This document shows, in pieces, positions 2,392-12,967 of a stretch of DNA of 12,967 nucleotides (within the stretch, counting starts at the first letter, position 1; every line of letters begins with the position of its first letter). This stretch comes from an archaeon (GTDB taxonomy: Archaea > Iainarchaeota > Iainarchaeia > Iainarchaeales > 1-14-0-10-31-34). The stretch lies in NCBI GenBank assembly GCA_043815885.1, contig JBDRIL010000006.1:1-12967 (forward strand), in the 5' to 3' direction. A model generated the notes under the pieces. That model was not told the DNA's origin and searched no databases. It saw nothing but the letters and a program-made list of their open reading frames with translations. The position numbers were made by a program, and so were the translations under genes.

Positions 2392-2974
2392 AAAAATAAT
2401 CAGGTTAAGGACTCCTCTAAATGAAGAAGAAATAAGGGAATTAAATTCCGGAGAAATGGTTGAATTAAGCGGAACAATCTTCCTTGCAAGAGACAGGGCG
2501 CATAAATTGCTCTCGGAAAAAACTCTTCCTGAATTCCGGAAAACACTGAATGCTTCTGCAATCTACCATTGCGGGCCGATTGCAAAAAAGGAAGGGAAGA
2601 AATGGAAAATTATTTCTGCAGGACCAACTACAAGCTCCAGAATGGAACCATATGAATCAGAAATAATAAAGAATTACGGAGTAAAGGCAATTATTGGAAA
2701 GGGAGGAATGAAGGAAGGCACTCTCCGCGCATTAATGGAGTTCAATGCAGTTTACCTTCTCGCTGTAGGAGGGGCTTCTGCCTTGCTTGCAGAAAAAATC
2801 GTGAAGGTAAAAAATGTTTTTTTCCTCAAAGAATTCGGAATCCCGGAAGCAGTGTGGGAAGTAGAAGTAAAAAACTTTCCTTCAATTGTTTCAATGGATT
2901 CAAAAGGAGAGAGTTTGCATAAGGAAGTGCTGCATAATTCAATTCAAAAATTCAAGGAGCTGCTTGAAAAATGA
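2384..2974 (+). CDS. fumB: Class I fumarate hydratase family, beta subunit
   Basis: ARDRAH, IYHCGP, AGPTTSSRM, IIGKGGM, GIPEAVW, MDSKG. Likely start ATG 2384 (MSEKIIRLRTPL), overlapping the alpha-subunit end, rather than the track's 2339. Confidence 0.93.
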   Translation: MSEKIIRLRTPLNEEEIRELNSGEMVELSGTIFLARDRAHKLLSEKTLPEFRKTLNASAIYHCGPIAKKEGKKWKIISAGPTTSSRMEPYESEIIKNYGVKAIIGKGGMKEGTLRALMEFNAVYLLAVGGASALLAEKIVKVKNVFFLKEFGIPEAVWEVEVKNFPSIVSMDSKGESLHKEVLHNSIQKFKELLEK

Positions 2975-3937
2975 AGGAAATGGAAGAAAAATTTGATATA
3001 GTGAAACAGGTTTCCTGCAGGGAAAAAATGACTGTAAATGAATTAATCCAGGAAATGAATGCTTCAGGAGTGATGGGCGCAGGAAAGTTGGCTAGAGCAG
3101 TATCTATTTACGAAGCAATGATCAGGGACAGGGAATGCAAGAAGTTCTTTGGCTTGGCAGGAGCAATGGTTCCAGGCGGAATGAAGAATGTAGTAATTGA
3201 TTTAATGGAAAAACACTGGATTGATGTACTAGTAACTACCGGGGCAAACCTTACGCATGATTTAATTGAAGCATTAGGCTTCCATCATTTTCAGGGAACG
3301 CATTGCGTTGACGACAGAATTCTTCATAAAAAAGGAATTGACAGAATGTATGACTCCTACATGAAAGGAGATGTGTATGAAAAACTGGAGGAATTCTGCC
3401 TGAAAGCATTCAAGGAAATGCCCAGAAAAATGACTATAAGAGAATTTCTCTGGGAATTGGGAAAAAGAACTCCCACTTCCCACACTAAATCCATTCTCCA
3501 CACTGCATATAAAGAAAAAATCCCCATATTCTGCCCTGCAATATCTGATTCAGGAATCGGTTTAATGGTTTGGAATGAAAAAATTGCTAAGAAAGGAGAA
3601 GCAGGAATTGAGGTTGATGCATTTGATGACTTAAAAGAAATAATGAATCTTTCCTGGGGGAGAGAAAGGAAAACAAAAATTAGGGTCAGTAATAATTGGA
3701 GGCGGAACCCCAAAAAATTTTATTGTCCAAAGCTTTCAATTCTCTCCAAACAAGGCTTCCTATGCAATCCAGATTACAATGGACAGGCCGGAACACGGCG
3801 GAAGCAGCGGAGCAGAACCAAGAGAAGCAATTTCCTGGGGGAAACTGCATGAAAAAGCCAATTACGTTAATGTAATCTGTGATGCAACTATTGCTTTGCC
3901 GATAATCTGTGCTGCACTAAAAGAAAGAATAAAATAA
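2971..3937 (+). CDS. dhs: Deoxyhypusine synthase, interrupted by a +1 frameshift between ~3635 and ~3683
   Basis: Frame 0 has GLAGAMVPGG, VTTGANLTHD, GIDRMYD, PIFCPAISDSGIG. The +1 frame from 3662 reads EKGKQKLGSVIIGGGTPKNF...YAIQITMDRPEHGGSSGAEPREAISWGK...VICDATIALP...ERIK* (TAA 3935-3937), with the catalytic Lys of EAxSWGK at 3842-3844. Removing one base gives 321 aa. Confidence 0.92.
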
Positions 3938-3940
3938 ATT

Positions 3941-4318
3941 TCATGACTGAACCATTTTTTGCAGTTTTCCTGAAGCAGAAAAAATGAAACTAGCCAGAAC
4001 TATTAGGTAAAGCATTAAAGAAAGGAGATAGTAAACAAAAGAGCCAGGCCCTAAAATTATAATAATGATTAGAAGGGTTAACCCCAGATATTTTCCAATC
4101 ATTATTTCTGTTCCATTAAAGATAATCCATGCAAGAACAAGGTATTGGGCGAGAAAGAAATCAAATACATTCGTTAGAATCAAGAAACCGGCAACAATGA
4201 TTGTGAGATGAAGCCTGCTTAACTTTCCGGGGCGAATGTAATAGATAACAATAATCAGCCATATCAGTATCTGTGCATAGAATTCGAAATGCTTAAGGAA
4301 TTCTCCAACTAAATCCAT
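3941..4318 (-). CDS. Small multi-pass membrane protein of unknown function (paralog A)
   Basis: 125 aa, almost entirely hydrophobic; aligns without gaps to 4369..4728; own TATA-like ATATAAAG (4350-4343) about 25 nt upstream. Confidence 0.85.
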   Translation of the reverse strand: MDLVGEFLKHFEFYAQILIWLIIVIYYIRPGKLSRLHLTIIVAGFLILTNVFDFFLAQYLVLAWIIFNGTEIMIGKYLGLTLLIIIIILGPGSFVYYLLSLMLYLIVLASFIFSASGKLQKMVQS

Positions 4319-4368
4319 GGCTCAGATAATTAGTAAACCCAGCTTTATATTTTTTACCTAAAAAGCTA

Positions 4369-4728
4369 CTACATCTTATTAAAAGCAGCTGCCACAAAAG
4401 AAGCAAACACAGATATATGAATAGCAATTGCAAGCAAAATAAACGGAAATGAATACGGTTCAAGGAATAAAAGCAATATCAATAGACTTATGTTGAATGC
4501 CCTGCCAGTCCAGATTTCCACTCCATGAAATGCAAGCCATGCAAGCACAAACCACCAAGCCATAAAGAAATCAAAAACAGTGGATATAACCAGAAATCCG
4601 CTAACAAGAACTATGAATTTCCCTCTGTTTAATGGTTTTGGATTCAAATAAAAAACAGTTATAATTATGAAAACCAACACAGCCATTAAGTATTTGTAGT
4701 AAGCCATGAAGTCTGTAATAAGGTCCAT
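4369..4728 (-). CDS. Small multi-pass membrane protein of unknown function (paralog B)
   Basis: 119 aa from ATG 4728 (MDLITDF matches MDLVGEF of paralog A, so preferred over TTG 4743); shared GFL...VFDFFxA...VLAW..FxGxEI. Confidence 0.85.
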   Translation of the reverse strand: MDLITDFMAYYKYLMAVLVFIIITVFYLNPKPLNRGKFIVLVSGFLVISTVFDFFMAWWFVLAWLAFHGVEIWTGRAFNISLLILLLFLEPYSFPFILLAIAIHISVFASFVAAAFNKM

Positions 4729-4799
4729 AATGCAATCAAACAAGTCCCGGTTATGTATAACTATTATGTATAGAAATATTTAAATATGGAATTAGGGCA

Positions 4800-4829
4800 T
4801 TACTTAATCTTTCCAACAACCAGCCTGTT
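4800..4829 (-). repeat. Displaced duplicate of the ATPase 3' end; contains a 13-bp direct repeat copy (4809-4821)
   Basis: CTTTCCAACAACC occurs at 4809-4821 and 5397-5409. On the minus strand the copy reads NRLVVGKIK*, versus the ATPase end VSWVVGKVR*. Confidence 0.8.
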
Positions 4830-4830
4830 T

Positions 4831-5106
4831 TCATCGGTATATTTTGTCATGGTGGTCGTAGTCTTCTATTATTATTGTTTTTTCTTTCTCGTTTATTGAG
4901 TAAATGAGTACAAACGGCCCGAATGTATGGACTCTTCTTTTTCCCTGCATTGGTTTTCTTAGTGGCTTGAACCAGTAGGGAGTTTCCATAATCTGTTTGA
5001 TTTTATTTTTCACTGTTCTTTCTTGTAATGGATCTTTTTTTGCTATTTTTTCAAATACTTTTTCCACGTGCTTTCTGATTTCCAATTCGTATTCCAAGGA
5101 AATCAT
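4831..5106 (-). CDS. Type II toxin, RelE/ParE superfamily (archaeal RelE/YafQ-like mRNA interferase)
   Basis: 91 aa, basic; FKPLRKPMQGKRRVH, FVLIY, C-terminal DYDHHDKIY; ATGA overlap with the antitoxin stop. Confidence 0.88.
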   Translation of the reverse strand: MISLEYELEIRKHVEKVFEKIAKKDPLQERTVKNKIKQIMETPYWFKPLRKPMQGKRRVHTFGPFVLIYSINEKEKTIIIEDYDHHDKIYR

Positions 5107-5345
5107 CTCTTGCGAAGCTTTTTGAAGTATTCATCAATGTCCTTGACCTTAACGGTTTTTTCTTTTTCGATTTTTCTCAGTTTTTCTACATACTCTGGCC
5201 TTAGTTCTGGTTCAAGCAATTCATGTTCGTATTCCTCAGCCATTTTATTGATTGCCTGGCTTTTGTCTCTGAACCCATATTTAGCTTTAACTATATTAAT
5301 CACTCTGTTGGCCTCTACATCCAACTTCACAATCGCAGTAGGCAT
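5103..5345 (-). CDS. Antitoxin, DUF2683-like family
   Basis: 80 aa; NRVINIVKAKYGFRDKSQAIN and LLEPELRPEYVEKL resemble DUF2683 proteins (from memory of the family); directly upstream of the toxin; GGTGA SD at 5354-5350. Confidence 0.85.
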   Translation of the reverse strand: MPTAIVKLDVEANRVINIVKAKYGFRDKSQAINKMAEEYEHELLEPELRPEYVEKLRKIEKEKTVKVKDIDEYFKKLRKR

Positions 5346-5350
5346 ATTAT

Positions 5351-5385
5351 CACCATATTAATATGGTGTTAATACGGTATTAAAA
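5351..5385 (-). promoter_or_regulatory. TA promoter with two adjacent palindromic operators
   Basis: Perfect 18-bp palindrome CACCATATTAATATGGTG (5351-5368), then TTAATAC-G-GTATTAA (5369-5383) overlapping the minus-strand TATA-like TTTTAATA (5385-5378). Confidence 0.75.
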
Positions 5386-5387
5386 GT

Positions 5388-8015
5388 TTATCTTACCTTT
5401 CCAACAACCCAGCTAACCAAATACAATACGATTCCAACTCCAATTATATATGCCCATTCAGTTATTCCCAATGCAACTGTATTGAAGAACACATTCAGTG
5501 GAGTGTACAATACAATTAATTGCAGGAAGATTGAGGAACCGATTGCCAGGATCAGCCATTTATTGCTGAAAGCTCCAACCTTGTACTCCCCCCTTATATT
5601 CTGCAGCCTGATTACCTCAAACACAACCAATGCAGTGAAAGCAATTGTCTGCGCCTTAATCACGTTCTCAGTATTCCCTAAATCTCCTTCATAAAATAAT
5701 CCAAACAAAAACAATACTGCAACTGTAATAAAGATTGAAGTAATGAATACAGTTGAAGTCATTCTCTTATTCATTATTTTTTCTTTTTTCGGTCTTGGAG
5801 GCTTATTCATTATTCCTTTTTCCGGCTTATCCAACCCCAAAGCCAGTGCAGGAAGGCCGTCAGTAACAATATTCAGCCACAATAATTGAATCGGAATCAA
5901 TGGAAGAGGGAAAGGAGTAAAAAAAGACAGAACAATAGCAATAAAGATAATCATTACTTCAGCAATATTGCATGAAAGAAGGTATGCAACAAACTTCTTT
6001 ATGTTATCATAAACCCCCCTTCCTTCCTCAACTGCCTCTACAATGCTCGCAAAATTATCATCAGTTAAAATCATATCGCTTGCTTCTTTTGCCACATCTG
6101 TCCCCTTTATTCCCATTGCTATTCCCATATCTGCCTTCTTTAATGCCGGGGCATCATTCACCCCGTCTCCAGTCATTGCAGTAACCAGGTTATTCGCTTC
6201 CAGTGCATTAATGATTTTCATTTTATGCAGTGGATTAACCCTTGCAAAGATATCAGTGTGAAGGATTGCCTCATCCATTTCCTTTTCATTCATTTCCTCT
6301 AATTCTTTTCCAGTAATCCCTCTTCCCTCCAAACCCAATTCCCTTGCAACTGCTATTGCAGTTTTTAAGTGGTCACCTGTAATCATTATCACCCTTATTC
6401 CTGCCTTCCTGCAAACCTTTACTGATTCAATTGCCTCCTTTCTCGGAGGGTCAATCATTCCCTGCAATCCCAAAAAAACCAGTTTCTCTTCTACTTCTTT
6501 TTCCTTTAATTCCTTGAACCCAAAACCCAGTACTCTCAGTGCCTTTTCTCCCATTTCATTATTTACTTCCAGTATCCTCTTCCTGTCCGCTTCATCCATT
6601 TTCCTTATATTTCCTTTTTCATAAATCCTGTCGCATTTCTCCAGCAATACCTCTGCAGCTCCTTTGGAATAAACATATTTCCTCTCCTTAAATTCATTCA
6701 CCACACTCATCAGTTTTCTTTCAGAGGAAAAAGGGACTTCATCCATTCTCTTCCATTCATTCTGCAGTTTCTCTTTATCCAATGAAGCCTTCTCTCCCAC
6801 TACAAGCAATGCCGCTTCAGTCGGATCGCCAATAATGTTTTCCTTTCCCGCAATACAGGAGTCATTGCATAAAACCCCTGCCTTCAATAATTCCTCTATT
6901 TCCCTTAAATCAAATTCCTTTCCTTCCTTCAAAAACTTTCCTTCCGCACTATAACCAATTCCCTTTACCTCAATGAATTCATTATTCACATACAGTTCCT
7001 TTACAGTCATTTCATTTTTAGTGAGTGTACCAGTCTTATCAGAGCAAATAACCTGCACCGCCCCAAGAGTCTCAACTGAAGGCAGCCTTCTTATCAGCGC
7101 GTGCCTTTTAGCCATTCTCTTTATTCCCAATGCAAGGGAAATAGTCACTACTGCCGGCAGCCCTTCAGGAATTGCTGCTACCGCCAGACTCAATGAAAAC
7201 ATCAATGCATTCCCGATATCCCCGCCACTCAATACCAGTGCCCCAAAAACAACCACACATATCCCTACAACCATTACTCCAATCCATTTCCCCAAATGCT
7301 TTAATCTTACCTGCAATGGGGTTTCTTCCTGTTCTATTTCCTGAATCATTACTGCTACTTTCCCTATCTCTGAATTCATTCCAGTTCTCACAACTATTCC
7401 TTTTCCCTTTCCCCTCACCACAGTTGTTCCGCTGAAAGCCATATTCTTTTGTTCTGCTACCCCAAGCTTTTCCTTTATCTCTAAAGAATTCTTTCCTACC
7501 GGAGTACTTTCCCCTGTAAGCGATGCCTCCTGCGTATAGAGGTCAAAGCATTCCACCAGCCTTATGTCTGCAGGAATCCTTGTCCCTTCCTCTAATTCAA
7601 TAATGTCCCCCGGAACCAGAAACTGTGAATCAATTTCATTCTTCTTTCCATCTCTCACTACAATTGCCTTTAATGTCATCATTCTCTTCAATGCCTGGAT
7701 TGATTTATCCGCATTGTATTCCTGCACAAATCCCACTACTGCATTAATGACTATTATTGCAAGAATCACTCCTGCTTCAATTGGCTCCTGACTAATAAAA
7801 AGAGAAATCAGGAAAGCAGCAATCAGTATCCATACAATAATGCTCTTGAATTGATTCAAAAAAATCCTTAACTTGGAAATCGGTTTCTTTTCTTCCAGTT
7901 TATTCAATCCATACTTCTCCAGCCTTTCCTTTGTCTCTCCTTCCTTTAAACCATTCAAATCAGAATTTAATTCCCTCACTACTTCTTCCACTGGTTGCTG
8001 ATAGAATTCATTCAT
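5388..8015 (-). CDS. Ca2+-transporting P-type ATPase (P2A, SERCA-like)
   Basis: 875 aa; TGES, IPEGLP, DKTGTLT phosphorylation motif, KGAAE, DPPR, TGD, GDGVND, M5 SCNIAEV, M6 WLNIVTDGLPA. Confidence 0.96.
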   Translation of the reverse strand: MNEFYQQPVEEVVRELNSDLNGLKEGETKERLEKYGLNKLEEKKPISKLRIFLNQFKSIIVWILIAAFLISLFISQEPIEAGVILAIIVINAVVGFVQEYNADKSIQALKRMMTLKAIVVRDGKKNEIDSQFLVPGDIIELEEGTRIPADIRLVECFDLYTQEASLTGESTPVGKNSLEIKEKLGVAEQKNMAFSGTTVVRGKGKGIVVRTGMNSEIGKVAVMIQEIEQEETPLQVRLKHLGKWIGVMVVGICVVVFGALVLSGGDIGNALMFSLSLAVAAIPEGLPAVVTISLALGIKRMAKRHALIRRLPSVETLGAVQVICSDKTGTLTKNEMTVKELYVNNEFIEVKGIGYSAEGKFLKEGKEFDLREIEELLKAGVLCNDSCIAGKENIIGDPTEAALLVVGEKASLDKEKLQNEWKRMDEVPFSSERKLMSVVNEFKERKYVYSKGAAEVLLEKCDRIYEKGNIRKMDEADRKRILEVNNEMGEKALRVLGFGFKELKEKEVEEKLVFLGLQGMIDPPRKEAIESVKVCRKAGIRVIMITGDHLKTAIAVARELGLEGRGITGKELEEMNEKEMDEAILHTDIFARVNPLHKMKIINALEANNLVTAMTGDGVNDAPALKKADMGIAMGIKGTDVAKEASDMILTDDNFASIVEAVEEGRGVYDNIKKFVAYLLSCNIAEVMIIFIAIVLSFFTPFPLPLIPIQLLWLNIVTDGLPALALGLDKPEKGIMNKPPRPKKEKIMNKRMTSTVFITSIFITVAVLFLFGLFYEGDLGNTENVIKAQTIAFTALVVFEVIRLQNIRGEYKVGAFSNKWLILAIGSSIFLQLIVLYTPLNVFFNTVALGITEWAYIIGVGIVLYLVSWVVGKVR

Positions 8016-11071: not shown

Positions 11072-11171
11072 ATTCAACACTCTTTATTTGCAGTTAGGAT
11101 AACTTGTTCCTCTGCATTCCTCTTCCAAAAAGAGTTGGTAAAAAAATAGTGCAGCATTTAATTTAAGTAAT

Positions 11172-11463
11172 TCACTTTGATTTTATTGGATAGTTTGCAA
11201 GATTGTTTCCAGCAATAATTTCAGCAACCCGTCTGTTAAGCCCTGTCTTTTTGTTAGGTCCCCCTGCCATTAACCTGTTAACCTCTACTTTAAATGCACT
11301 GGCATAAGGAATTCTCAATTTTCCGTATAACGTTTTAACATTGTCCCATTTGATTTTTTTTTCTCTTGCTAGGTTTACCAAAGAATTATACGAAGGAGGC
11401 TCCCCTCTCTTAGGCCCCGGCTTTTCGAACAATAGTTGGATTTTTTTTCTTTGGTAACGGCAT
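11172..11463 (-). CDS. Basic hypothetical protein, probably starting at ATG 11463 with a +1 frameshift in an A8 run
   Basis: Track ORF 11172..11432 has only a TTG start. ATG 11463 lies about 23 nt below TTTATATA (11493-11486) and joins the ORF (MPLPKKKIQLLFEKPGPKRG...) if one A is removed from the run at 11448-11441. Confidence 0.6.
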
Positions 11464-11501
11464 AATTAAATATTTTTAATTCCATTATATAAATAGTTAC
11501 T

Positions 11502-11732
11502 AAAAAAACAGGGTTTTACAGAGAGGAAATTAAATCCCCTCTCATTCGGGAGTTGTAACTGAAGTTTACTTTGTTAAACTTTAAATCCTTAATTCAACGT
11601 GAATCAAGAAAAGAAAACCCCAACCAAAAAGAATCTGTAACTTAAAATTTTGCCGGAGTTTGGTGGAATTAAGGGGTATTTAATGGATTAATTCCGTGAA
11701 ATGCAGTGAATTTTCTTATGGTTTGGGGTTTA
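11502..11732. ncRNA. Candidate structured non-coding RNA or cis element (strand uncertain, minus favoured)
   Basis: No ORF of 60 aa or more; multiple complementary segments; minus-strand TATA about 24 nt upstream and a T7 tract at the 3' end. No match to an RNA family I recognise. Confidence 0.4.
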
Positions 11733-11743
11733 AAAGGCCTTTG

Positions 11744-11763
11744 TTTATATATTATTATATAAA
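11744..11763. promoter_or_regulatory. Back-to-back TATA boxes (bidirectional promoter)
   Basis: TTTATATA (11744-11751), TTAT spacer, TATATAAA (11756-11763): perfect 8-bp inverted repeat of the archaeal TATA consensus. Confidence 0.6.
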
Positions 11764-11866
11764 AGAAAAGACAGAAAATGACACTATTTTTTTTCTTAAT
11801 TGAAAAACTTTGCTGTTTAACGCAGGATAGCGTTTTTTTCTCTTTCTTATAATAGGAGTTGATTAA

Positions 11867-12967
11867 TTGAATTTTAGTGAACTGAATATAAATGACGATA
11901 TAAAGAAGGCTTTGCAGAGAAAAGGTTTTTCAGAGGCTTCTGAGATACAGGAAAAAGTGATTCCTGAAGCCCTTTCAGGAAAAGATATTGTTGGAAAATC
12001 AAGGACAGGCACAGGCAAGACAGCTGCTTTTGCTATTCCAATAATTGAAAAAACAGTCCCAGGACAGGGATTTTCCACTCTCGTTGTTGTTCCAACAAGA
12101 GAGCTTGCAAGACAGGTTAAGGAAGAAATCGCTTCCATTGCAATCAACAGCAATATTAAAACAATAGCTGTTTTCGGCGGCCAGAACATCCGTATGCAGA
12201 TTGATTTGCTTAGAAGGAAACCAGAAATAATTGTTGGTACTCCTGGAAGGCTGCTTGACTTTATTTCAAGGAGGGTTATTGGCTTGGAAAAAGTAAGGTT
12301 CTTGGTTCTGGATGAAGCCGATAAAATGTTTGACATGGGTTTCAGGGAAGACGTGGAAAAAATAATTTCTTTTATTCCAAGAGAAAGGCAGACAATGCTT
12401 TTTTCAGCAACCATGCCGGCAGAAATTCTTTCCCTTATTGAAAGGTACATGAATCCAGATAAACTTGTTTTTGATTTAAGCGAAGACAATGCGCCGGTAC
12501 ATGAAGTGGATCAATTCTATGTAATGGTTGACAAAAGACAGAAGATTGATGCACTTCAAAGGGTTATTGACAACAGTGATTCAAAGATACTTGTTTTCTG
12601 CAGGACAAAGAGAACTGTTGACTGGCTTGAAATGCAGCTTTCAAGAAGAAGAATAAGTGCAGTTGCAATTCATGGAGACAAGCCCCAGAGCGCAAGAAAC
12701 AGGATAATCGAGAATTTCAAGAGTTCAAGAGAAGGAGTGCTTATTGCAACGGATATTGTTGCAAGAGGAATTCATGTTGACGACATTGACTATGTAATAA
12801 ATTTTGATTTCCCGCAGGAAGCAGAAACATACATTCACAGGATTGGCAGGACAGCAAGACAGGGAAGAAAGGGAACAGCAATCAGCTTTTGCTCCAATTT
12901 GCTTGAATTAAACTCTATTGAGAGAGTTGTCGCCAGAAACAACACAGTAATACAGCAACTTCAATAA
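11867..12967 (+). CDS. deaD: DEAD-box ATP-dependent RNA helicase (core only, 366 aa)
   Basis: Q motif GF...SEIQ, RTGTGKT, PTRELA, TPGR, DEAD, SAT, LVFC, ARGI, HRIGRTAR; TTG start with AGGAG SD at 11854-11858; TAA at 12965-12967. Confidence 0.96.
   Translation: MNFSELNINDDIKKALQRKGFSEASEIQEKVIPEALSGKDIVGKSRTGTGKTAAFAIPIIEKTVPGQGFSTLVVVPTRELARQVKEEIASIAINSNIKTIAVFGGQNIRMQIDLLRRKPEIIVGTPGRLLDFISRRVIGLEKVRFLVLDEADKMFDMGFREDVEKIISFIPRERQTMLFSATMPAEILSLIERYMNPDKLVFDLSEDNAPVHEVDQFYVMVDKRQKIDALQRVIDNSDSKILVFCRTKRTVDWLEMQLSRRRISAVAIHGDKPQSARNRIIENFKSSREGVLIATDIVARGIHVDDIDYVINFDFPQEAETYIHRIGRTARQGRKGTAISFCSNLLELNSIERVVARNNTVIQQLQ

Follow-up and report, generated by a model that had tools for sequence, protein, structure and literature searches.

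How does a two-gene toxin-antitoxin (TA) pair that brings no recombinase come to lie at the very end of another gene, with one short stretch of that gene's end repeated on either side of it? The question is raised by contig JBDRIL010000006.1 of assembly GCA_043815885.1, a stretch of 12,967 nt that we call the window (contig C6 in our numbering), from a DPANN archaeon of the order Iainarchaeales whose genome comprises 1.16 Mb in 62 contigs, is 92% complete and has 37.6% G+C. On the minus strand of the window, the gene order is Ca-ATPase, DUF2683 antitoxin, ParE/RelE-type toxin and two paralogous small membrane-protein genes. We consider it probable that 4822-5396 is a cassette that was inserted at the end of the ATPase gene with a target duplication of variable kind, and that host or otherwise unrelated functions catalysed the event. 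Insertion and displacement of the former ATPase end are well supported by analogy with sister loci, short of proof at this one.

The repeat, CTTTCCAACAACC, occurs exactly at 4809-4821 and 5397-5409 with a spacing of 588, and the pair can be stretched to 39 nt at 72% identity (4783-4821 against 5371-5409). In the ATPase frame, the copy at the present gene end (copy 1) belongs to AGC TGG GTT GTT GGA AAG GTA AGA TAA (VVGKVR*), and the copy beyond the TA pair (copy 2) to AGG CTG GTT GTT GGA AAG ATT AAG TAA (VVGKIK*), with the stop at an equal offset. Copy 1 stops 9 nt upstream of a TATA-like block, copy 2 begins 9 nt past the toxin stop codon, and the two overlap the 3' end of the target gene as the attL and attR of integrative elements would. 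The C-terminal domain of the ATPase is complete up to residue 870 (Pfam Cation_ATPase_C, residues 703-870). On the far side, 71 nt separate the displaced stop (4800-4802) from ATG 4728 of the next gene, which is the natural layout for the locus before an insertion. The two TA genes are the only genes between the repeats, with no integrase fragment and no further open reading frame (ORF). An earlier note on this DNA, made from its sequence alone, had described an exact 13-bp repeat bracketing promoter, antitoxin and toxin, a codon-for-codon match of the two gene ends and a module without integrase. The repeat is correct to the base, the two ends read as claimed, and the gene content between them agrees with the third statement.

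The module is one of a family. Among 196 genomes of the order, representing 73 genera, a DNA search found the cassette in 36 genomes and 25 genera (the window's own genome included) at 65-82% identity, and the best match (82% at the nucleotide level) belongs to another taxonomic family. Thirty of the 37 matches could be given a locus and seven could not; one locus is partial, and 29 two-gene loci, the window among them, were examined. In these, and in an alignment of 11 of the loci, homology starts at a TATA-like CTTTTTAAT about 42 nt ahead of the antitoxin ATG and extends, by way of a conserved palindrome and the two genes, as far as the toxin stop codon. Outside these limits the flanks are unrelated except in a few pairs or groups: L029 and L041 have an orthologous downstream context in common, while an upstream tRNA-Tyr-like sequence and leader are common to L034, L038 and L039 and to L035 and L036. 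At another locus, L007, an archaeal RNase P RNA gene precedes the cassette by 33 nt. The comparison supports the view that the module is a horizontally mobile promoter-to-stop unit without a recombinase.

The strongest evidence is provided by three sister insertions for which a congener has the empty site. In the first, which carries the cassette closest to that of the window, a 725-nt insert (G099, contig C31) has the 8-bp repeat CTTTTTAA at both ends, and the empty site (G101, contig C28) has one copy. This octamer is the TATA-like box of both the target and the cassette, and such a TATA-on-TATA junction speaks for short identity between cassette and target. In the second, a 1469-nt insert made up of the TA pair and a 221-aa ORF (G089, contig C31) has the 12-bp repeat AATGTTTAAAAA at both ends, against one copy in the empty site (G087, contig C10). 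In the third, a 591-nt insert lies behind an FKBP-like gene (G101, contig C18) with a 24-nt imperfect, lysine-codon-rich repeat spanning the stop codon: the last codons and stop of the gene (…AKRKAKK*) recur after the toxin (…KRKAKK*), 20 of the 24 nt being identical, and the empty site (G099, contig C29) has a single copy. The downstream copy in G101 is continuous with orthologous downstream DNA and is therefore the displaced original end. This last repeat (locus L029) is A-rich and is not singled out by cross-locus controls, and we accept it only on the empty-site evidence. In a further genome, G093, a 1347-nt mosaic that includes a TA cassette sits directly after a stop codon; the genes on either side of it are neighbours in each of the six remaining genomes of the genus, with matched flanks 2 to 41 nt apart. 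No target repeat was found at the outer ends of the mosaic. Across the family, the flanking repeats measure 8, 12, 13, 19 and 24 nt; all are different, and they have no common core.

Gene-end duplications of this kind also occur elsewhere in the window's own genome, where a scan for repeats overlapping the stop codons of long ORFs returned two cases, both on contig C56. At 11141-12632, a 40-bp exact repeat of the end of a serine hydroxymethyltransferase (SHMT) gene flanks a 1452-bp two-gene insert. At 2405-5277, a 21-bp exact repeat (about 45 nt if imperfect) at the PurH stop flanks a 2852-bp insert that holds an AAA_14/DUF4143 ATPase and an 80-aa/87-aa ParE-like pair. No integrase was found in either insert. 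The type of cassette seen at the SHMT site recurs in six other genomes, and in one of these, G082, 208 nt of gene end are duplicated around it; each copy encodes a 69-codon tail, the two tails being homologous but diverged, which makes a textbook case of a replacement end. The PurH insert has an AbiEi/AbiEii pair as its neighbour. The claim in the earlier note that the ATPase end was displaced by an inserted cassette thus draws strength from the three sister empty sites and from these duplications.

These cases suggest how the locus could have arisen. A self-contained type II TA operon (TATA-like promoter, operator, antitoxin and toxin), from a family of 'naked' promoter-to-stop cassettes that move horizontally among genomes of this order, may have entered the Ca-ATPase gene two codons ahead of its stop and left one copy of the 13-bp target stretch on each side. 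The cassette could have been a circle that underwent reciprocal crossover at a short stretch of identity, or the event could have been the repair of a staggered break. The pump would now end in two cassette-side codons and a stop (V-R-stop), and the original I-K-stop, with the promoter of the next gene still behind it, would have come to lie 588 bp downstream. Only insertions that spare the target gene would be retained, after which the addictive TA pair would hold the insert in place. We favor variable target duplication over a dedicated site-specific system because there is no recombinase in the cassette and the repeats differ by site. That the same event took place at the window, which of the two copies is ancestral and what kind of enzyme was involved are points that we infer.

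The features of the locus are collected in Table 1. The antitoxin gene comes first and the toxin gene second, in the same direction, with a 4-nt overlap of the ORFs at ATGA; the pair at 5103-5345 and 4831-5106 thus has both the gene layout of a type II TA system and family profile matches above cut-off. The best NCBIfam match of the toxin is the YafQ family TIGR00053, at 57 bits and under the cut-off of 87, and its PDB matches, to 2khe and 3g5o, are weak. The first conserved block of the cassette may be an archaeal TATA box, and the palindrome that follows is likely an autoregulatory operator. The present ATPase end coincides with the expected position of the B recognition element (BRE) of the TA promoter, and homology to other cassette copies begins only at the TATA-like block adjoining it; GTA AGA TAA may be a supplied replacement end, or cassette DNA that stops the frame early by chance. 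The bases that follow the toxin stop in L035 (AAACTGGCT) resemble the spacer of the window. GGCTGG stands directly after the toxin stop in three cassette copies, those of the window (4822-4832), L035 and L028, and over the post-stop bases the window and L035 are identical at 10 of 11 nt (AAACAGGCTGG and AAACTGGCTGG), while their toxins are only 52% identical. Downstream, the true start of orf124 is likely ATG 4728 rather than TTG 4743. The genes at 3941-4318 and 4369-4743 are tandem paralogues, neither of which matches a Pfam family, and no homologue of theirs lies near the ATPase in relatives from the family.

Table 1. Features of the ATPase-TA locus, in the direction of transcription (window coordinates)
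Feature	Position	Strand	Basis
P-type Ca2+-ATPase gene, 875 aa	5388..8015	-	ORF list; Pfam E1-E2_ATPase, Cation_ATPase_C, Cation_ATPase_N, Hydrolase
Repeat copy 1, minus strand GGTTGTTGGAAAG, ATPase codons V-V-G-K	5397..5409	-	direct-repeat search
Current last two ATPase codons and stop, GTA AGA TAA	5388..5396	-	proposed cassette-side DNA
TATA-like block ACTTTTAATACCG, first conserved bases of the cassette family	5375..5387	-	alignment of 11 loci
Palindrome between TATA-like block and antitoxin start	5345..5374	-	inverted repeat I3, 18-nt arms, 94% complementary; conserved in family
Antitoxin gene, 80 aa, DUF2683	5103..5345	-	Pfam PF10884, 37.3 bits against a cut-off of 27
Toxin gene, 91 aa, RelE/ParE/YafQ superfamily	4831..5106	-	Pfam ParE_toxin, 31.1 bits against a cut-off of 23
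9-nt spacer after toxin stop, minus strand AAACAGGCT	4822..4830	-	sequence reading
Repeat copy 2	4809..4821	-	direct-repeat search
Proposed displaced original ATPase end, ATT AAG TAA (I-K-stop)	4800..4808	-	ancestral status by analogy with the G101 insertion
Intergenic stretch with TATA-like TTTAAATA ahead of next gene	4729..4799	-	putative TATA box
Small membrane-protein gene orf124	4369..4743	-	no Pfam family; paralogue of the 3941-4318 gene

Several observations weigh against insertion with target duplication at the window, and one group of them concerns the repeat. The 1.16-Mb genome holds 350 maximal exact direct repeats of at least 13 nt at a spacing of 100-1000 nt, so a 13-nt repeat is in itself unremarkable; what is rare is its tight position at both module ends. 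The gapped score of the window falls only in the top 1.5% of cross-locus pairs, and the repeat was picked from a very large scan, which calls for some look-elsewhere discount. Past the 13 identical bases, four of the next nine differ, unlike what a simple longer duplication followed by even drift would leave; these mismatches fit a crossover or duplication confined to the 13-mer better than a longer duplication. Finally, 20 of the 29 loci have no significant flanking repeat within 120 nt of the conserved block, at least two of them (L028 and L033) having repeats farther out than this test reaches. The 350 repeats, the top-1.5% score and the 20 loci without a tight repeat, together with the frequency of stops in this AT-rich DNA, would suit an account in which the 13-mer and the in-frame stop stand by chance beside a TA module that arrived otherwise, for example by replacement through flanking homology; the strain comparison described below, in which the whole region 4520-5447 appears to move by homologous exchange, points the same way. 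Such a coincidence is nevertheless very unlikely. The copies stand 9 nt away from the conserved block, one beyond either end, shuffled flanks matched the observed repeat in 0 of 300 and 0 of 500 trials, and an estimate from the genomic density of repeats gives a chance expectation of about 3e-4 in windows of 30 nt and of about 5e-3 in windows of 120 nt. The same architecture is found at the three sister insertions with empty sites, and the two longer-repeat cases lie in the same genome.

The earlier note had proposed that flanking repeats be sought at other DUF2683-RelE modules. Among the 29 loci, a flank match within 120 nt of the block that was reached by none of 500 shuffles was found at five (L034, L035, L036, L029 and the window), and a match at p<=0.012 at four more (L032, L012, L043 and L007), against the 20 without one. 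When the upstream flank of one TA locus was compared with the downstream flank of another, exact matches of at least 13 nt appeared in 7 of 812 pairs, six of which are pairs of loci with a common tRNA-Tyr-like motif. An apparent gapped repeat of a gene end at L006 was dropped (p ~0.4).

The remaining points on that side concern the ATPase locus in strains and relatives. The structure is not an assembly artefact, since the TA and repeat structure is reproduced in an independent metagenome contig of 1823 nt (L053; 98.6% identity), and separate contigs of sequencing run X1, which holds most of the stretch and is probably the source sample, cross each repeat. L053 covers window positions 3824-5646 and differs from it at 25 positions, none of which falls within the 928 nt of 4520-5447, a segment comprising the cassette, both repeats and the near flanks; 14 lie in the adjoining 147 nt of ATPase sequence (5448-5594) and six in 4501-4519. 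To judge from this distribution, the cassette-bearing segment looks to have been recently exchanged homologously, or swept, between strains. The earlier note had called for an empty ATPase site in relatives, and for empty-site and circle junctions among reads. No empty ATPase site was found in the relatives' genomes, in the protein collection or in the metagenome scan, which was queried with orf124 and whose sole match was L053. The closest ATPases are at most 61% identical in the genomes and at most 60% in the protein collection, without synteny, and a protein search with the ATPase C-terminal region returned nothing above 60% identity; to judge by their source names, the nearest homologues belong to Woesearchaeota/Nanoarchaeota. 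A TA module follows the ATPase at none of the six family-level ATPase loci that have downstream sequence. The C-terminal tails of the first 59 of 119 listed ATPase homologues are too variable to tell which end is ancestral. Neither an empty-site joint (4809 to 5409) nor a circle joint was found in the X1 contigs, which is weak evidence because contigs drop rare variants. A search of viral contigs gave one weak match only, 44% over 39 residues.

A relative that is about 86-91% identical, found in two marine-sediment runs (X2 and X3), bears on what had been named as a refutation, relatives carrying the TA module without the repeat. It keeps the ATPase-TA junction and is collinear with the window in two parts, one that starts at 4833, the toxin stop, and enters the ATPase, and one between orf124 and 4759, while 992 other bases replace 4760-4832, where repeat 2 lies. 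In this relative, divergence may hide repeat 2 and the displaced end from alignment, a second insert may have pushed them outward, or they may be absent; the insert may also once have been larger. The 992 bases, with room for a small recombinase or a second cassette, bring up a different history, in which the TA pair is the residue of a larger, integrase-bearing island at the ATPase end, whittled down by deletions until only the addictive genes were left. Composite inserts elsewhere (the TA pair with a 221-aa ORF in G089, a MazF-like cassette with the TA cassette in G100 and the 1347-nt mosaic in G093) would be in keeping with such a history, as would the decay of integrated elements to att-flanked remnants described for bacteria in the part of Guedon et al. 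2017 (PMC5704250) used here. We think it quite unlikely for the window: the same promoter-to-stop unit occurs at 28 other loci with unrelated flanks, the whole insert measured against an empty site is only 591 nt in G101 and 725 nt in G099, and repeated independent decay to one minimal unit is improbable. The interval between the window's repeats, free of integrase fragments and other ORFs, also speaks against it.

Insertion of a unit that was small from the outset, which we prefer, still needs an enzyme. The earlier note had suggested mobilisation in trans and a search of the genome for a tyrosine recombinase, and the genome does encode XerA on contig C36 (264 bits against a cut-off of 220) and one divergent integrase on contig C49, these nearest recombinase genes both being on contigs other than that of the window. 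The latter sits next to the tRNA in an 11.4-kb element (C49, about 3528-14930; L054) that is integrated in an intron-bearing tRNA-Tyr, has a 26-bp repeat of the tRNA 3' end at both of its ends and also encodes a terminase-like protein, a radical SAM protein and helix-turn-helix regulators. A MazF-type toxin gene lies just outside the element. ARAGORN with introns finds the intron-bearing tRNA-Tyr in G077 and G076 and not on C49, where the copy was read by eye; Rfam, and ARAGORN without introns, miss it.

Some of the sister cassettes are themselves found at tRNA-Tyr. In G077 (L034), where the tRNA-Tyr(GTA) gene holds a 61-nt intron (ARAGORN with introns), the cassette lies directly 3' of it, and an exact copy of the last 19 nt of the tRNA follows the toxin stop. 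A scan of the 700 nt downstream of tRNA-Tyr in the sister genome G076, made for the tRNA-end motif and not for TA genes, showed no second copy of it. The tRNA-end motif GGGAGGCGGGA occurs four times on one strand in G016, and the cassettes of G093 and G171 have variants of it at their flanks. The G016 copies belong to a row of small cassettes (L047; contig C4, 9581-12813), in which a partial tRNA-Tyr 3' end comes after every cassette, on the same strand; the row contains DUF2683-ParE, VapB-VapC, a 171-aa unknown, and a 138-aa gene with a GNAT acetyltransferase.

From these observations one could build a cis-mobilisable, integrase-less element in which the 13-mer serves as the attL/attR core, XerA or the resident integrase moves a 588-bp circle in trans, and the cassette mimics the ATPase end. 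A core without mismatches, with arms that agree in part and stops that stand at an equal offset, would suit it, as would the two recombinases, the position of cassettes beside or between tRNA-Tyr 3'-end motifs in G077, G016 (four copies), G093, G171 and G098, and the integrase element with its own tRNA-Tyr repeat in the same genome. The part of Krupovic et al. 2019 (PMC6563490) used here offers a precedent in archaeal elements that enter protein genes in their 3'-distal portion and supply a new stop. The action of an integrase in trans is nonetheless unlikely because the repeats of the family share no core, the three empty-site insertions included, and the idea of a dedicated enzyme finds no support: the repeats differ by locus, and the tRNA-Tyr site of the C49 element, the sole integrase-bearing element in the genome, is unrelated to the 13-mer. 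Neither the 13-mer nor its 25/26-nt extensions were found elsewhere in the genome with mismatches allowed. An inverted-repeat search showed no arm-type or dif-like half-sites at the cassette ends, and the X1 contigs, with the limit already given, contain no excision or circle joint. A link between the 13-mer and the tRNA-Tyr-type sites of L035 and L036 was tried and rejected, the match of the window's downstream flank to the L035-type site reaching only the top 3%, with generous gaps, which is not significant.

Other searches of the ends were likewise negative. None of the 17 inverted pairs found joins both cassette ends, and there are no terminal inverted repeats such as a DNA transposon or a miniature inverted-repeat transposable element (MITE) would have. 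No 28-bp two-armed Xer/dif (pdif-type) site was found at 4800-4830 or 5388-5420, and no inverted repeat that would make an attC-type folded site at the cassette ends. No known RNA family or tRNA was found at the repeats; Rfam, run on eight related loci and not on the window, gave no match at E up to 0.1. Repeats of another kind, some 50-150 nt long, adjoin TA inserts in L035 (G093, contig C18; about 1230-1415) and L057 (G099, contig C31; about 3625-3760 and 1935-2025). They occur on many contigs of G093 and G099 (33 and 15 matches) and look like MITE-like hairpin elements.

Cassettes are stacked in arrays in G016, G077, G100 and G093. A second mobile type consists of a small antitoxin and a MazF-like toxin with its own conserved promoter, and is found upstream of the TA cassette in L056 (G100, contig C54) and downstream of it in L034 (G077, contig C23); in G100 it lies between the FKBP-like gene and the TA cassette. 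A wider picture, which we offer tentatively and regard as possible though doubtful, is that the order maintains a pool of recombinase-less 'addiction' cassettes (DUF2683-RelE/ParE, VapBC, MazEF-like and unnamed two-gene units) that travel between genera as small circles or fragments. Their entry points would be TATA boxes and the 3' ends of housekeeping genes, of tRNA-Tyr and of RNase P RNA, and the crossover would use 8-40 bp of identity, either fortuitous or carried along; the target end would be rebuilt, arrays would be stacked, and homologous exchange would then sweep them through populations. If so, the order would have an integron-like cassette economy without attC and without a dedicated integrase, an archaeal TA counterpart of the insertions with long target duplication made by bacterial restriction-modification (RM) units.

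We judge the locus to be a genuine, fairly clean example of gene-end insertion by a small addiction cassette. The movement of TA pairs outside plasmids, phages, integrons and transposons is poorly documented, and here a single 0.55-kb family yields several clean comparisons of filled and empty sites, with short variable target repeats and a preserved gene end. It thereby links the mobility of archaeal TA pairs to the unexplained insertions of RM units and points to a general route by which addiction modules could invade compact genomes without breaking genes. For annotation, such insertions would explain why DPANN genomes show orphan pseudo-C-termini after small accessory genes. Full-text literature searches listed no paper that describes archaeal cassettes of this kind made up of TA genes only, which is no proof of absence.

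Several known systems resemble the cassette in part. Integron gene cassettes, among them the TA cassettes of chromosomal integrons and those of archaeal integrons (Ghaly et al. 2022, PMC9668308), and the dif modules of Acinetobacter plasmids (PMC6449649, PMC13141974) are likewise small, of promoter or gene size, recombinase-less, arrayed and often made up of TA genes. The window, in contrast, has no attC-type hairpin or 28-bp Xer site at its cassette ends and no IntI nearby, and the repeats of the family are target-derived and differ by site. Unlike the duplications made by a DNA transposon or MITE, these repeats have no fixed length, ranging from 8 to 24 nt among insertions. The cis-mobilizable elements (CIMEs) of streptococci and other Firmicutes, in the account given in the cited part of PMC5704250, are att-flanked remnants without an integrase, and the cassette resembles them in its attL/attR-like repeats, in the absence of integration and transfer genes and in standing in tandem with other elements at a gene 3' end. 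A CIME is defined there by att sites common with a cognate integrative and conjugative or integrative and mobilizable element, by whose integrase it is mobilized, whereas the window's genome holds no element with a matching site, and decay from a larger element is not indicated for the cassette family.

As for archaeal integrated elements, the cited part of Krupovic et al. 2019 places 14 of 68 thaumarchaeal ones in the 3'-distal portion of a protein gene, the new stop being borne by the element. Insertion at a gene 3' end, short direct repeats, a new stop and a displaced original stop (Fig. 2C legend of that paper) are common to those elements and to the cassette, and both re-use sites in tandem. 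Those elements are kilobases long and are casposons, viruses, plasmids or others with integrases, whereas the unit here has 0.6 kb, two genes, no recombinase and no att core among sister copies.

The closest known case is the insertion of RM units with long, variable target duplication (Furuta et al. 2010). There, too, an addiction-type unit without transposase or integrase is flanked by direct repeats of variable length that occur once in the empty site of a related genome, as they do here at the three sister insertions. In the part of that paper drawn on here, the repeats often span a stop codon, one of 46 bp overlaps 15 bp at a gene 3' end, and the mechanism is left unexplained, with double-strand breaks suspected. 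The present cases differ in their cargo, a TA pair, in their DPANN hosts, and in that one 0.55-kb cassette family occupies many sites in many genera. Their repeats, at 8-24 nt (13 exact at the window, or 39 nt at 72%), also lie under the 30-bp working threshold of that study, which the 40-bp repeat at the SHMT gene of the same genome exceeds.

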